From: a virus
Length of the DNA stretch: 42,016 nt
Virus record (IMG/VR): IMGVR_UViG_3300022690_000657
Location: 1-42,016 of that record
Strand: one strand, 5' to 3'
Part shown: piece after piece, positions 6,874 to 39,243 of the stretch
Layout: every line of letters begins with the position of its first letter
Position numbering within the stretch: position 1 is the stretch's first letter
Notes under the pieces: model-generated
Seen by the model: only the letters and a program-made list of their open reading frames with translations
Told to the model about the DNA's origin: nothing
Database searches by the model: none
Position numbers and translations under genes: made by a program

Positions 6874-6902
6874 TTGACTCAAGCAAGATTATTCGTTACT
6901 AT
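6874..6902 (+). promoter_or_regulatory. Rightward early promoter TTGACT-17-TACTAT
   Basis: Read on the plus strand. Its -35 box lies back to back with the leftward -35 box (GTCAA-8 nt-TTGAC). Confidence 0.6.
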
Positions 6903-6933
6903 ACAATTACACATTTAATAAAAGGTAAGCAAA

Positions 6934-7134
6934 ATGCATTACGGGAAAGCTATTAGAAAGAAGCTTATAGATGCTGATAAAGACCAAACATGGTTAGCTG
7001 ATGGGTTGGGAGTAACAAAGCAAGCAGTTAGCTTTATGTGCAGTCAGAGGCACTTAAATACATCTAAGCTACATAAGGTTTGTGATTTATTAGGCGTTAC
7101 AGTTATGTCGATGATGATCGAGGGCAATGTATGA
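6934..7134 (+). CDS. Cro / XRE-type HTH regulator (66 aa)
   Basis: QTWLADGLGVTKQAVSFM is a canonical HTH_XRE segment. It is the first gene of the rightward operon. Confidence 0.8.
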   Translation: MHYGKAIRKKLIDADKDQTWLADGLGVTKQAVSFMCSQRHLNTSKLHKVCDLLGVTVMSMMIEGNV

Positions 7135-11295: not shown

Positions 11296-11891
11296 ACTTA
11301 TATGAAAAACTAGGCGTAGCAATAACCGCCACCAAGAAAGAAATAAAACAGGCTTTTAAAAAACTCTCAACTAAACATCATCCCGACAAAGGTGGCGACA
11401 CTGAAGAGTTCAAGGTCATTCAAAAAGCTTATATGGTTTTGAGTAATGATGAAAAGCGTGATCACTATGATAAAACCGGTGAGTCTGAAAGTAATAATCG
11501 AAATCCTGACAATGCATTGCTTCAAGTATTTGCGGCGATTATCGATAATAGAAACTTTCAAGGCAATATTATTGAAAATATCGCTGGAAATCTAACGATG
11601 CAAATAAACCAGATCAGAAAGGAAAACACCCAACTTAATAAAAGAGAGAGAGACCTTAAAACGCAAAAGGACCGAATTTCTGCTAAAAATGAAAATTTCT
11701 TTGAGATCATCTTAGGTGAAAAAATTAAAGGTTTTGTTAATAAACAAGAATCAAACCTAAAAGCTATTGAGGGTATTGAGTGTTTAATTAAATTGATCAA
11801 TGATTATTCTGATGAAAGACCAGAAGAAGTTATAATATCAAGCTTTGATCGCCAAACCTTTCACAGCGGTACAACAGGGTTTCAGCTATGA
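11292..11891 (+). CDS. J-domain (DnaJ-like) protein with a coiled-coil C-terminal half
   Basis: NLYEKLGVAITATKKEIKQAFKKLSTKHHPDKGGDTEEFKVIQKAYMVLSNDEKRDHYD contains the HPD motif. It has an ATGA overlap with the upstream gene. Confidence 0.85.
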   Translation: MNLYEKLGVAITATKKEIKQAFKKLSTKHHPDKGGDTEEFKVIQKAYMVLSNDEKRDHYDKTGESESNNRNPDNALLQVFAAIIDNRNFQGNIIENIAGNLTMQINQIRKENTQLNKRERDLKTQKDRISAKNENFFEIILGEKIKGFVNKQESNLKAIEGIECLIKLINDYSDERPEEVIISSFDRQTFHSGTTGFQL

Positions 11892-12442
11892 AGGACCAAT
11901 TGAGTTTATCATCAGAGTTTGATTATAACCCCGACTTAGAAACGGATAATCTTACTGATCAGTGGTATACGCCGGTAGAAATCATCGACCGGGTAAAGGC
12001 TGTTTTCGGTGGTACCATAGATTTAGATCCCGCCAGTTGCCCCGCGGCTAACAAAATAGTAAGAGCATCAGAATACTATGATGAGTCAGACGATGGTTTA
12101 AAACAAGATTGGTATGGAAACGTGTTCTGTAATCCACCATATAGTACGCCAAAAGTTGGTCAATTTTGTGAGAAGGTAGTCGATGAATATGAAAACGATA
12201 ACATTAATTCAGCTATTTTTTTACTCAAAGAAGGAGCAACAAACGCCTGGTTTAGACCATTGAGGCCTTATTTAACTGGATATTTAGATAAAAGAGTAAA
12301 ATTTATTGATGGTACCACGGGTAAAATATGCGAATCGCCGCGCTCAGGTCATTGTTTAGTTTATCTTGGGCCATATGTTAAACAGTTTATTTGCACAATG
12401 AGCGTAGGCGGTTTTTGTTATTTTCCAAATATGAATTATTAA
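11888..12442 (+). CDS. dam: Phage DNA N6-adenine methyltransferase (Dam family)
   Basis: DQWYTPVEIIDRV...IDLDPAS...NVFCNPPYS (NPPY catalytic motif). It has an ATGA overlap with the J-domain gene. Confidence 0.8.
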   Translation: MKDQLSLSSEFDYNPDLETDNLTDQWYTPVEIIDRVKAVFGGTIDLDPASCPAANKIVRASEYYDESDDGLKQDWYGNVFCNPPYSTPKVGQFCEKVVDEYENDNINSAIFLLKEGATNAWFRPLRPYLTGYLDKRVKFIDGTTGKICESPRSGHCLVYLGPYVKQFICTMSVGGFCYFPNMNY

Positions 12443-36572: not shown

Positions 36573-36751
36573 AATGTTATCCTCGTTTTAAGTGGGTTTG
36601 GCTGTGAACTTCTATTAAATAAAAAGTGCCGCTAAACTACATACGGCTAGTGTGGCCTACATTGGCCTTTAGGGATTCTTTAATTTCTTCTTCACGTTCT
36701 TTCATTCGCTTTAAATAGCGTTTACGCCTGATTTTTCTTTCTTCGTCGAGA

Positions 36752-37030
36752 TCAGTTTTTATGAAGCTCGTCATGTTCTTTGTTGACGCTGCACTGAGAG
36801 ATAATTCTTTCTTGGTACATTATAATATGCTCTTCGTAAGAATCAAATACGTTATCGGGGATACTGTTTAATTCTTCATCCGTGAATCTCTCTGACAGCC
36901 TTGTCAAGCTCTTGTCAATGCAGCCAATAGGATTATGTGCTATCTCTATAGTTTCACAACCTACCAGCCCTATCACGGCGAGACTTGCCAGAATTAGCTT
37001 TGACACGTTCTTTAATTCTTTCATCTTCAT
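36752..37030 (-). CDS. o-spanin (outer-membrane lipoprotein, Rz1-like)
   Basis: Signal peptide with lipobox LVG-C. Its start is embedded in the 3' end of the i-spanin gene. Confidence 0.7.
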   Translation of the reverse strand: MKMKELKNVSKLILASLAVIGLVGCETIEIAHNPIGCIDKSLTRLSERFTDEELNSIPDNVFDSYEEHIIMYQERIISQCSVNKEHDELHKN

Positions 37031-37220
37031 GTTTTAAAATCTCTTCTGTTATTTCGTCTTGATCTTCCTTTATCTCGTTTATTTTATCATGGACTTTGTT
37101 TTTATGCTCAAGCTGCTTGTTTTCAGCCCTTAGATATTTAATCCAACCAAACATGATTAGACCGATAAAGGATGCTACGGCGTACATCTTAGCTTTAATT
37201 GGTGCTAAGAAATCAAGCAT
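36954..37220 (-). CDS. i-spanin (Rz-like)
   Basis: N-terminal TM segment VASFIGLIMFGWIKYL followed by a charged coiled coil. The first ATG is at 37220. Confidence 0.65.
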   Translation of the reverse strand: MLDFLAPIKAKMYAVASFIGLIMFGWIKYLRAENKQLEHKNKVHDKINEIKEDQDEITEEILKHEDERIKERVKANSGKSRRDRAGRL

Positions 37221-37410
37221 CACTGTTGGCCTTTGTGTGGCTTCTTCCAAAATATAATGCCGCTACAGGGCTCAAAAACATAGCTAAACCTGCGTAATCT
37301 GGAGCCTCTTGCATAAATATTTTAACTAGGCATGATATTAAAGTAATCCAAAAAGCCATCTTAGCAGCACACACTTTGCCATCTTTATCACAAACTAAAT
37401 CTTTCATCAC
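37213..37410 (-). CDS. Holin (65 aa, two TM segments, dual Met-Met-Lys start)
   Basis: TM segments MAFWITLISCLVKIF and YAGLAMFLSPVAALYF, with a charged C-terminus. It heads the spanin genes. Confidence 0.6.
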   Translation of the reverse strand: MMKDLVCDKDGKVCAAKMAFWITLISCLVKIFMQEAPDYAGLAMFLSPVAALYFGRSHTKANSDA

Positions 37411-37422
37411 CCTTCCCCATAT

Positions 37423-37431
37423 ATGTTTAAT
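37423..37431. repeat. 9-bp direct repeat ATGTTTAAT, left copy (right copy at 37963-37971), flanking the plus-strand cassette
   Basis: Exact 9-mer found at both borders of the inverted-orientation cassette. Confidence 0.6.
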
Positions 37432-37437
37432 CTGTCA

Positions 37438-37446
37438 ATTATATCA
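37438..37446 (-). promoter_or_regulatory. Extended -10 promoter TGATATAAT facing the holin / late operon
   Basis: Read on the minus strand about 28 nt upstream of the holin ATG. Confidence 0.5.
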
Positions 37447-37482
37447 CATTGAAAATATATTTCATTATATTAAATATAACGC

Positions 37483-37510
37483 TTGTGTAATATTACAGAT
37501 GTGTTACTAT
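37483..37510 (+). promoter_or_regulatory. Promoter TTGTGT-16-TACTAT with the perfect palindrome TGTAATATTACA (37486-37497) overlapping the -35 box and spacer
   Basis: Read on the plus strand upstream of 37553..37789. Confidence 0.5.
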
Positions 37511-37552
37511 GGTTTCAGGTTAAGCAAATACACAAACACAAGGAACGGGAAA

Positions 37553-37789
37553 ATGAACACTTACCAAAAGATTGAAGCGGCGATTAATAATATTAAAAAC
37601 ATACACCAAGAAGCTGGTAACGAGTTACATCAACAATTATTTCATGCTGGTAATTCTGGCTGGTCTAGAGAAGATTTGTCAGAATATGTCAAAAGCGATA
37701 ATGATGTCGTAGACCATTTTGGTTGTGAGAATATTCTAGATGAAATTAGAGAAATTCAAGACTCTATCATTAATTTTTTTGGCGAATAA
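37553..37789 (+). CDS. Small acidic protein (78 aa); anti-defence candidate
   Basis: Internal ATG of ORF 37376..37789, preceded by AAGGAACGGGAA. It is rich in Asp/Glu and has no recognisable family. Confidence 0.55.
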   Translation: MNTYQKIEAAINNIKNIHQEAGNELHQQLFHAGNSGWSREDLSEYVKSDNDVVDHFGCENILDEIREIQDSIINFFGE

Positions 37790-37790
37790 A

Positions 37791-37970
37791 ATGAAACTAA
37801 AAGAATTTGCAAATAAATACAAATGCCGCGCTGATTGTGCGGCAGCCCTCGGCATTAAAACCAAATACTTGACCGTATTAATTAGTCGAAATAGGAATTT
37901 CATACAACTTAAGGGCGGTAATTGGGTGATTTTGTCGCACGGACATAAATTATTTAATCTTGATGTTTAA
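37791..37970 (+). CDS. Small HTH protein (59 aa); Aca-like, paralogue of 978..1175
   Basis: MKLKEFANKYKCRADCAAALGIKTKYLTVLIS...GGNWVILSHGHKLFNL. It starts 1 nt after the upstream stop. Confidence 0.55.
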   Translation: MKLKEFANKYKCRADCAAALGIKTKYLTVLISRNRNFIQLKGGNWVILSHGHKLFNLDV

Positions 37971-37971
37971 T
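37963..37971. repeat. 9-bp direct repeat ATGTTTAAT, right copy
   Basis: See the left copy. Confidence 0.6.
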
Positions 37972-37973
37972 AT

Positions 37974-38369
37974 TTACAATCCCAAATCCTTTGGGTCAAC
38001 GTAATTGCCTTGCAAATCTTTTATTTCTAAGTGAACGTGCTCTGTTATTTTGGGATATCTATCACCTAGCTTTTGTGATGAACCTATAATATCGTCATCA
38101 GTAACATAATCGCCTATCGATACAAACGGCTTAACATAAAAAACCCTTACATTATAGCCCTCTTTGGTGGTTATCTGAACGTATCTAAATGATGTGTCAT
38201 TTGCATATGGATAGCCAAGCTTTGTTACTTCACCCTCAACCGGGGAAAATACGTGTGAGCCAGGCGTACAGGCGTGATCAACACCGTTATGAATTCTAGA
38301 TCCTCTACTCGCTCCAAAATGACCGCAACCAAACGAATCTCTTTCTCTTAAGGGTGCTATAAGCTTCAT
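37974..38369 (-). CDS. M23-family peptidase endolysin
   Basis: RIHNGVDHAC (HxxxD) and EHVHLEI (HxH) zinc motifs. It has an ATGA overlap with the upstream gene. Confidence 0.8.
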   Translation of the reverse strand: MKLIAPLRERDSFGCGHFGASRGSRIHNGVDHACTPGSHVFSPVEGEVTKLGYPYANDTSFRYVQITTKEGYNVRVFYVKPFVSIGDYVTDDDIIGSSQKLGDRYPKITEHVHLEIKDLQGNYVDPKDLGL

Positions 38370-38695
38370 TTCATTACCCAATCAGCCAAATCTTTTCCGA
38401 ATGTTCCAAGAGCGCCAGCCAAAATGATACCACCACCCCATATAATTTTATTTGCTATTGATGTTAGTTTACTATTCGCTTGAACCGCCTCTTTTAGTTT
38501 GACGATATCACTAGTGTTTTTGTTAACTTTCTCTTCTATTCTGTCATGCTTATGAAAATAACTTAACAATTTCTCATGCATTGTTTTGTTATCTGATGCC
38601 ATCTGTTCGAGGGCTTTTGATGTCCTGTCGTTGCTCTCTGCATTCATCTTCACGTAGAGATTGAACTCGGGCCTTGAAATGTGTTCGTCTTTCAT
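38366..38695 (-). CDS. Coiled-coil protein with a C-terminal TM anchor
   Basis: 109 aa. C-terminal IIWGGGIILAGALGTFG. Confidence 0.5.
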   Translation of the reverse strand: MKDEHISRPEFNLYVKMNAESNDRTSKALEQMASDNKTMHEKLLSYFHKHDRIEEKVNKNTSDIVKLKEAVQANSKLTSIANKIIWGGGIILAGALGTFGKDLADWVMK

Positions 38696-39243
38696 GCCAG
38701 ACCCCCACTAACAGGCCTACGATAAGACATATAAAACCGGTCAGTAAATATGGTATAAGTTCTTGCATGCTTCCCTAGCTTGCTTATTAGCAATTTGTTG
38801 TAAGATGCCATATAAATTAACTGCATTAACATGATGAAACCCAATATATTCGAGTAACCATTATACATTTGTTCACCAGAAAATCCAAAAACGGAATATT
38901 CGTAGTATGGGGCAATCATTAAGATATTGTATATTGCAGCAATTGATATTAGCGCAACTATCATTATAGACACGTCATAACCTTTTTTTGCAGCAAGATA
39001 CAATAAGTAAATAGATGTAAATTGTATTGATGAGTAAGCAAGATACATTCCAGAATTATCAAGAAGGTTTGTCATCCTTAAGCCTATAATGGCTGCAACC
39101 TTACACATGATAAACTCAATTAACAGGATAAAAATTGATAGTGATTTAGGTCTAACTGAATATACAAATAGGAAAAAGGCCGTAATTAAGCAGCCTGCTG
39201 AAAAAAATTCACTATTAAACAACCAGCTCAGAAAATTCATCAT
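38692..39243 (-). CDS. Polytopic membrane protein (about 5 TM segments)
   Basis: 183-aa hydrophobic ORF. Confidence 0.55.
   Translation of the reverse strand: MMNFLSWLFNSEFFSAGCLITAFFLFVYSVRPKSLSIFILLIEFIMCKVAAIIGLRMTNLLDNSGMYLAYSSIQFTSIYLLYLAAKKGYDVSIMIVALISIAAIYNILMIAPYYEYSVFGFSGEQMYNGYSNILGFIMLMQLIYMASYNKLLISKLGKHARTYTIFTDRFYMSYRRPVSGGLA

Follow-up and report, generated by a model that had tools for sequence, protein, structure and literature searches.

A two-gene cassette that reads against the surrounding lysis and late genes of an uncultured podovirus is very probably an accessory operon equipped with its own regulator. The virus is known from IMG/VR record IMGVR_UViG_3300022690_000657, a complete metagenomic contig of 42,016 bp that was analyzed over its whole length (the window in what follows) and that belongs with the P22-like podoviruses by its P22_portal, Terminase_6 and Sf6-type small terminase matches. 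On the plus strand, the cassette encodes ORF78, an acidic protein of 78 amino acids (aa; positions 37553-37789), and ORF59, a basic protein of 59 aa (37791-37970) that is probably a Cro/YdaS-like helix-turn-helix (HTH) followed by a beta-hairpin. The ATG of the ORF59 open reading frame (ORF) begins one nucleotide past the ORF78 stop (TAA-A-ATG), and the gene converges with that of an M23-peptidase endolysin (37974-38381, minus strand), only 3 nt separating the two stop codons. The reading that we favor, with a probability of about 0.5, is that of a self-contained, moron-like operon lying head-on in the lysis and late genes, in which ORF78 would act as an inhibitor and ORF59 as the autorepressor. 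It develops an original prediction made from the letters of the DNA, all of whose features are present where that prediction placed them.

Exchange of the regulator and its partners

Associations running in two directions carry the argument. A 765-bp contig from a related phage, L007 (ERZ23495036), carries an ORF59 gene that is 87% identical at the nucleotide level, and its DNA homology to the window is confined to that gene, starting about 3 nt before the ATG and ending at the TAA. Upstream lies an unrelated ORF that ends ...YFSSNEIRKAFK and overlaps the ORF59 start by ATGA; downstream lies a convergent, abutting gene without similarity to the M23 lysin; and beyond this gene in the lysin position comes a 76% identical homologue of the window's 109-aa gene, an arrangement that suggests a swap of lysins between conserved flanks. 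By the logic of guilt by association, the ORF59 gene stands in L007 beside an upstream ORF and a lysin that are both unrelated to those of the window, and it is, on this comparison, a separately exchangeable gene. The abutting gene of L007 (352-703, minus strand) is split by a scaffold gap and has no match in PHROGs; its NHFHVE motif may be reminiscent of M15-type peptidases.

The association also runs from the side of ORF78. In L004 and L005, a homologue of 68% identity is followed after 4 nt by the gene for an XRE-type HTH protein (HTH_19, E = 1.2e-4, below the Pfam cutoff), and the operon has a near-consensus promoter, TTGACA-17-TATTAT. The element CCCAATGGG occurs just upstream of the -35 of this promoter, again in its spacer, and as a third near-copy 100 nt upstream; it is expected 0.18 times, and the observed count is reached in none of 200 shuffles. 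Upstream of the ORF78 homologue of L008, two copies of the 13-mer ATTAATGAGCATC stand in direct repeat (38-49 and 106-117, about 68 nt apart); they may represent another kind of operator or regulatory element.

A regulator with variable upstream genes, together with an upstream gene with variable regulators, is the logic that defines loci for anti-CRISPR (Acr) and anti-CRISPR-associated (Aca) proteins, and the Aca repressors, which are HTH proteins, recognize inverted repeats located in acr promoters, some of them acting in both directions (PMC13551039, PMC9410906, PMC12282945). The acr-aca layout that had originally been proposed for the cassette is partly supported, by the architecture and by the two-way association, and not by homology to Acr and Aca proteins.

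Accessory status of the cassette

Three IMG/VR phages, L018-L020, encode endolysins 82-88% identical to that of the window and have no opposite-strand cassette. Their DNA homology to the window ends at the endolysin stop codon, which is overlapped (ATGA) by the next lysis gene on the same strand: a phrog_3427 holin in L018, a 166-aa protein of no assigned function (phrog_1544) in L019, and in L020 a 69-aa membrane protein of no family, followed by an Rz-like spanin (phrog_739, E = 2e-5) and a lipoprotein of no family. The 45-aa gene w45 (36637-36774), which lies downstream of the lysis genes in the window, is conserved in L018 and L019 at 67-71% identity, and the variable slot therefore extends from 36775 to 37973. 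This slot holds the cassette together with the holin and spanin genes, none of them homologous to those of the relatives. The base composition of the cassette also deviates from that of the genome, with a GC content of 0.32 (37411-37973) against 0.39 for the whole window. The unit is thus, as far as these comparisons reach, an accessory and exchangeable module, and the synteny comparison that the original prediction had called for did yield relatives that share the endolysin and lack the cassette.

Two related IMG/VR phages, L009 (4616-5194) and L010 (3746-4276), encode proteins with a domain resembling that of Tad2 (Thoeris anti-defence 2; Pfam PF11195, E about 1e-24). The genes lie about 1 kb upstream of the conserved 161-aa, 109-aa and lysis genes, so that this neighborhood hosts recognized anti-defence genes in this phage group. 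At 5066-5640 of L010, and unlike in L009, the 109-aa gene directly precedes the downstream small genes, with no endolysin or holin there; the lysis genes of L010 must lie elsewhere, or the slot must be empty.

The ORF78 family

ORF78, with an isoelectric point (pI) of 4.5 and a net charge of -10, founds, as judged by profile searches, a previously undescribed family that is restricted to uncultured mobile elements. A search of 1.84 billion representative proteins recovers 76 clusters at E < 1e-3 and 27 at E < 1e-10, clusters being counted at 50% identity. Nearly all members are standalone proteins of about 75-105 aa with a median pI of 4.3, in which L25, Q28, R66 and Q69 are invariant and the C-terminal helix carries the conserved motif IR(E/N)IQDxIINF(F/Y)GE. 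The N-termini of the homologues align to the 78-aa reading that starts at 37553 and not to a 96-aa gene call. Both cassette genes are, by their pattern of substitution, real genes under purifying selection. Homologues of ORF78 are 59-68% identical to it, with saturated synonymous sites and 0.26-0.43 nonsynonymous substitutions per site (dN), and the sole homologue of ORF59, P0007, is 83% identical in aa sequence, with a ratio of nonsynonymous to synonymous substitution (dN/dS) of 0.19; together, these observations rule out chance ORFs.

The AlphaFold2 model of ORF78 comprises five helices, with a predicted local distance difference test score (pLDDT) of 89.4 and a predicted template modelling score (pTM) of 0.78. 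Searches of Pfam, PHROGs, PADLOC and NCBIfam give no match to the protein, and Foldseek finds no fold relative of the model (best E 5.2 in PDB and 1.9 in BFVD, neither significant), in keeping with its original description as small, acidic and of no recognizable family. Membership in a known Acr, Aca or anti-defence family is not supported by any match in profile, PDB or Foldseek searches. Against PDB sequences the family profile finds nothing; the AcrIF13 match there, at E = 0.23, is noise, and ORF78 is accordingly rejected as a known Acr.

DNA searches of 50,697 phage records and the PLSDB plasmids by megablast and tblastn gave no matches, so far as cultured phages are concerned no DNA-level relative being found by megablast. 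The ORF78 family is likewise not found in INPHARED phages, in PLSDB plasmids or in one-genome-per-species GTDB (both genome scans), and IMG/VR scans with a narrow ORF78 alignment, the ORF59 alignment, the spanin and the upstream gene of L007 returned nothing.

On the conjugative plasmid L001, the ORF78 homologue is the 14th ORF. It faces away from the nikA-like and relaxase genes, which lie at a distance of 8.5 kb, and it is found among small unknown co-oriented ORFs, upstream of type IV secretion system genes. The origin of transfer (oriT) usually adjoins nikA and, if it does so here, the homologue probably lies in the leading region of the plasmid. In plasmids, anti-defence genes sharing one orientation are overrepresented among the first 30 or so ORFs of the leading region (Samuel et al. 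2024, PMC11541004). In phages L002/L003, L011/L012, L017 and L026, the family member lies in opposite-strand islands of small genes that are bordered by the terminase on one side and, on the other, by NinG, where the early region ends; such islands with family members occur in at least five phage lineages, and the cassette of the window has the same character. In L013-L016 and L024, phages of a different type, the family member is found in early clusters of small genes. Neighbors of the family genes are mostly tiny, often acidic and unconserved between lineages, and ORF78 therefore behaves as a single-gene module. A conserved, basic Zn-ribbon protein of 56-59 aa (CxxC...CxxC) is encoded downstream of the family member in two IMG/VR phages, L023 (6337-6516, the next gene) and L026 (4835-5005, one gene further), and may be an alternative nucleic-acid-binding partner of the family.

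The ORF59 protein

ORF59, with a pI of 10.0, is probably a helix-turn-helix protein. Its sequence, CRADCAAALGIKTKYLTVLISRNRNFIQLKGGNWVIL, reads as a helix-turn-helix and then a beta-hairpin, and the AlphaFold2 model gives the secondary structure order H-H-H-E-E, at a pLDDT of only 41. An hhalign comparison aligns it, at E = 0.01, with a stretch of 36 columns (31% identity) that covers the HTH of a 57-aa Cro/YdaS-like protein (HTH_28 and YdaS, E about 1e-3) that is encoded in L030, two genes downstream of an ORF78 family member. The HTH label of the original prediction thus keeps this weak hhalign match and receives no support from the libraries, ORF59 having no Pfam match at E ≤ 10. Its profile finds only a designed protein at E ≤ 10 among all PDB chains, which we assume to include the solved Aca structures such as Aca1, Aca2 and Aca10; BLASTP against a lambda Cro sequence gives no alignment; and neither of two JGI metagenome scans recovers the protein. 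The Foldseek list consists mostly of winged-HTH regulators, and is not counted as evidence because the model is poor and every match is non-significant at E ≥ 2.

The divergent control region

Between the start of the putative holin gene and that of ORF78 lies a divergent, AT-rich control region of 142 bp (37411-37552, 29% GC). Its candidate operator is a 30-bp imperfect inverted repeat (37477-37506; 13/16 arm matches) that sits between the candidate promoters and the ribosome-binding site, and whose core is the perfect 12-bp palindrome TGTAATATTACA (37486-37497). A plus-strand promoter, TTGTGT-16-TACTAT, had originally been proposed at 37483-37510; it is present at that position, but it is weak (7/12) and was missed by the consensus scan, which reports CTGTCA-18-TATATT (37432-37461) and ATCACA-17-TATATT (37443-37471) as alternative sites on the same strand. 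The best consensus matches in the region point left, toward the holin. One is ATGAAA-16-TATAAT with a TG extension (37438-37465, minus strand) and another is ATTACA-16-TATAAT (running from 37491 to 37464), the -35 of which is one half of the palindrome; each is a 10/12 site identified by consensus match only. The outward extended -10 that had been described as facing the holin, TGATATAAT (37446 to 37438), is present as well and belongs to a 10/12 leftward site.

Nine promoter-like sites are found in the region, against 11.2 expected from shuffles. Perfect 12-nt palindromes number nine in the window, and a shuffled 142-nt intergenic region holds one with a chance of about 0.08. The palindrome originally reported is perfect and in place; taken by itself, it is not significant. 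The pattern TGTAAT-N0-6-ATTACA has its sole site in the genome at the cassette palindrome, and the whole genome contains no second copy of the palindrome, at up to two mismatches, beyond chance. The 5' untranslated region folds no better than shuffles (z = -0.29).

Proposed mechanism

In the proposed mechanism, host RNA polymerase would start in the divergent region and transcribe the cassette without any dependence on the late operon, probably at an early stage of infection. ORF78 would then bind and neutralize a host protein, the likeliest target being a component of anti-phage or anti-plasmid defence, given that the family is restricted to mobile elements and given its positions there; another nucleic-acid-handling protein would be the other candidate. 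ORF59 would be made by translational coupling to ORF78, and its dimer would bind the inverted repeat centered on TGTAATATTACA and shut the promoter, thereby limiting the dosage of ORF78 and stopping convergent transcription into the endolysin gene and the late transcript. With the Aca proteins as a model, ORF59 would play the role known from acr-aca operons, and it may also affect transcription of the holin and spanin genes, because the candidate operator overlaps a leftward promoter-like element. We consider the odds of autorepression by ORF59 through the palindrome to be even, and propose an anti-defence role for ORF78 tentatively, as somewhat short of an even chance.

Several observations weigh against this reading. 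Neither cassette protein has homology, in sequence or in fold, to a known Acr, Aca or anti-defence protein. Most members of the ORF78 family are not followed by an HTH gene, and have acidic, Zn-ribbon or K/R-rich partners or none. The HTH assignment of ORF59 draws on a weak hhalign match, a low-confidence model and a sequence pattern. The palindrome and the promoter are statistically indistinguishable from chance and have no comparative support, and L007, the sole contig with an ORF59 homologue, stops short of the promoter region. Finally, the stretch from 36600 to 39170 has no predicted terminator-like site on plus or minus strand, unlike a classical moron.

A bolder version of the same idea would make ORF78 a new and widespread defence inhibitor that binds its target directly, for instance by mimicking nucleic acid, ORF59 a new minimal Aca-type repressor, and the single palindrome a bidirectional switch that silences the head-on operon and lets late transcription proceed into the genes for the holin and the spanins; taken together, these claims are doubtful. 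What the locus contains is new protein families within a known kind of locus. If ORF78 does inhibit a host defence, its fold and its family of at least 76 clusters would be new to the anti-defence repertoire, a family drawn from environmental mobile elements and missing from collections of cultured phages, plasmids and genomes, and ORF59 would become a new bait for guilt-by-association searches. The head-on placement within the lysis cassette would also provide a simple system for studying how a repressor settles the clash of an early accessory promoter with late transcription. If ORF78 is no inhibitor, the cassette adds one more small unknown moron.

Alternative readings

The phage encodes a short tyrosine recombinase (Phage_integrase, E = 2e-14), ERF, a Dam methylase and NinG, and a Cro-like HTH at 6934-7134 (HTH_26, above the Pfam cutoff) next to which no CI-like repressor is found. 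The recombinase and the want of a neighboring repressor favor a reading in which the cassette is a prophage moron for lysogenic conversion or superinfection exclusion, or else the missing immunity module that the original prediction had entertained, with ORF59 repressing early promoters and ORF78 expressed in the lysogen. So does the early rightward promoter, TTGACT-17-TACTAT (6874-6902), whose -10 context GTTACTAT (6895-6902) recurs in the cassette. Behind this promoter comes ATTACACA, which is the half-site TGTGTAAT of the cassette repeat in reverse complement. At both 6874-6913 and 37484-37510, GTTACTAT and TGTGTAAT (reverse-complemented at the early site) lie within 20 nt of each other, a co-occurrence whose post hoc probability we estimate from site counts at about 0.004; the early promoter may carry an ORF59 half-site, or both places may share an early-promoter signature. 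Taken singly, however, each 8-mer occurs three times in the window, which is its chance frequency. The palindrome has no second full copy in the genome and thus argues against ORF59 as an immunity repressor, the early promoter having only one 8-nt half-site nearby, and the ORF78 family is placed where entry-phase genes typically sit, in phages and plasmids alike. An immunity or prophage function is, on balance, unlikely.

The leftward orientation of the best intergenic promoter-like sites, one of them with the palindrome half ATTACA as its -35, would fit a module for lysis timing or late-gene control, in which ORF59 mainly governs the leftward promoter or promoters of the holin and spanin genes and ORF78 acts as a co- or anti-regulator. 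In each of the two phages in which it occurs, the ORF59 gene lies directly against a gene for a lysin, and relatives couple the holin straight to the endolysin, so that this phage needs some other means of holin expression. Yet no terminator blocks late read-through across the cassette, the gene upstream of ORF59 is replaced in L007, and homologues of ORF78 occur on a conjugative plasmid and in early clusters without lysis genes nearby. Such a role is improbable as the main function of the cassette.

The cassette had further been presented as a discrete insertion flanked by a 9-bp duplication, and an exact 9-mer, ATGTTTAAT, does stand at both ends (37423-37431 and 37963-37971, plus strand). 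Removing one copy together with the unit would leave a compact junction, as originally claimed, with 23 nt from the endolysin stop to the holin start, and the cassette is missing from relatives. A transposition-like insertion with a target-site duplication is nevertheless very unlikely, and the repeat is probably coincidental rather than an insertion scar. The 9-mer occurs three times in the window against 1.34 expected; a 142-nt and a 46-nt segment in the same geometry share a 9-mer at 4% of the positions in the genome, the figure for shuffles being 5.8% (P about 0.04-0.06); and two further exact 9-nt repeats lie within the same 1.2 kb. Moreover, eight of the nine bases of the right copy are the last ORF59 codons, GAT GTT TAA (D-V-stop), and L007 conserves this copy as part of the gene although its flanks are unrelated, which argues that it is no target-site duplication. 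The cassette contains only its two small ORFs, with no transposase or recombinase gene, and its ends have no terminal inverted repeat (at best 25 nt at 72%, AT-rich). An empty site with a single ATGTTTAAT is not found among the relatives, nor can one be defined, because the neighboring holin and spanin genes are also non-homologous there; the exchanged block may instead be the whole of 36775-37973. The cassette is therefore, from the comparisons at hand, accessory and lineage-restricted, yet a separate insertion cannot be demonstrated.

Gene order (small protein, then HTH antitoxin) and tight coupling recall a type II toxin-antitoxin pair of the HigBA type, a reading rejected as barely credible given that ORF78 is acidic and all-helical, unlike RelE/HigB toxins, that PADLOC, Pfam and NCBIfam give no match, and that the partner gene is not conserved across the ORF78 family.

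Lysis genes and other features of the window

Of the labels first given to the lysis genes, that of the endolysin is confirmed (Pfam PF01551 Peptidase_M23, E = 3.5e-11), and that of the holin receives no library support. The putative holin is a 65-aa membrane protein (37213-37410, minus strand), divergent from the cassette and preceded by the Shine-Dalgarno sequence GGGGAAGGG; it is so called from its position and hydrophobic segments only, belongs to no family in Pfam or PHROGs, and was returned by an exact-protein look-up only from the same phage. It is followed on the same strand by a putative i-spanin (36954-37250), with weak PHROG matches to Rz-like spanins (E = 0.005), and by an overlapping gene for a putative o-spanin lipoprotein (36752-37030), recognized from its sequence, with the lipobox LVGC, and of no family match.

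Two further membrane proteins, encoded on the minus strand, precede the endolysin and are kept in relatives with different lysins: a 109-aa protein (38366-38695) that has a membrane segment, IIWGGGIILAGALGTFG, at its C-terminus and matches XhlA-like proteins very weakly, and a polytopic protein of 183 aa (38692-39243). The true holin, or a protein accessory to it, could be one of these two and not the product of the 65-aa ORF. Elsewhere in the window, an orphan Dam-type N6-adenine methyltransferase (11888-12442, plus strand; Pfam PF05869, E = 6e-18) has a possible anti-restriction function in its own right. Neither Rfam families nor tRNAs were found in the window.

Comparison with known systems

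Among known small regulators, ORF59 resembles the mini HTH proteins lambda Cro, P22 Cro and YdaS in its length of about 60 aa, its basic character, its predicted alpha-alpha-alpha-beta-beta order and an AALGI-x5-L-x2-LI pattern at the putative turn; it differs from them in having no Pfam match and no BLASTP alignment to a lambda Cro sequence. The plasmid leading-region anti-defence islands (PMC11541004) offer a parallel for the L001 homologue, which is the 14th ORF on the nikA/relaxase side that is predicted to enter first and is oriented like its neighbors. This parallel comes from a single plasmid, and the ORF78 family is unmatched in PLSDB.

Phage morons and the accessory hotspots near lysis and terminase genes are closer in kind. 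Unlike morons, the cassette has no predicted terminator, and it splits the lysis genes instead of following them. Like them, it has the opposite orientation and a lower GC content than its surroundings and is missing from relatives that share its flanks, and at least five phage lineages carry the ORF78 family in opposite-strand islands of a similar kind.

The acr-aca operons provide the remaining comparison. The cassette differs from them in being convergent with the endolysin gene, with no terminator between, in lacking sequence or fold similarity to solved Acr and Aca proteins, and in belonging to a family most of whose members have no adjacent HTH; ORF59 is also, at 59 aa, shorter than Aca1 and Aca2. 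It shares with acr-aca operons a small acidic gene upstream and a tightly coupled small regulator gene downstream, an inverted repeat (here a candidate) in the promoter or 5' region, and a location inside an otherwise co-oriented string of phage genes. Above all, the same regulator is found with a different upstream gene in L007, and the same upstream gene with a different HTH in L004 and L005, as in acr-aca operons.

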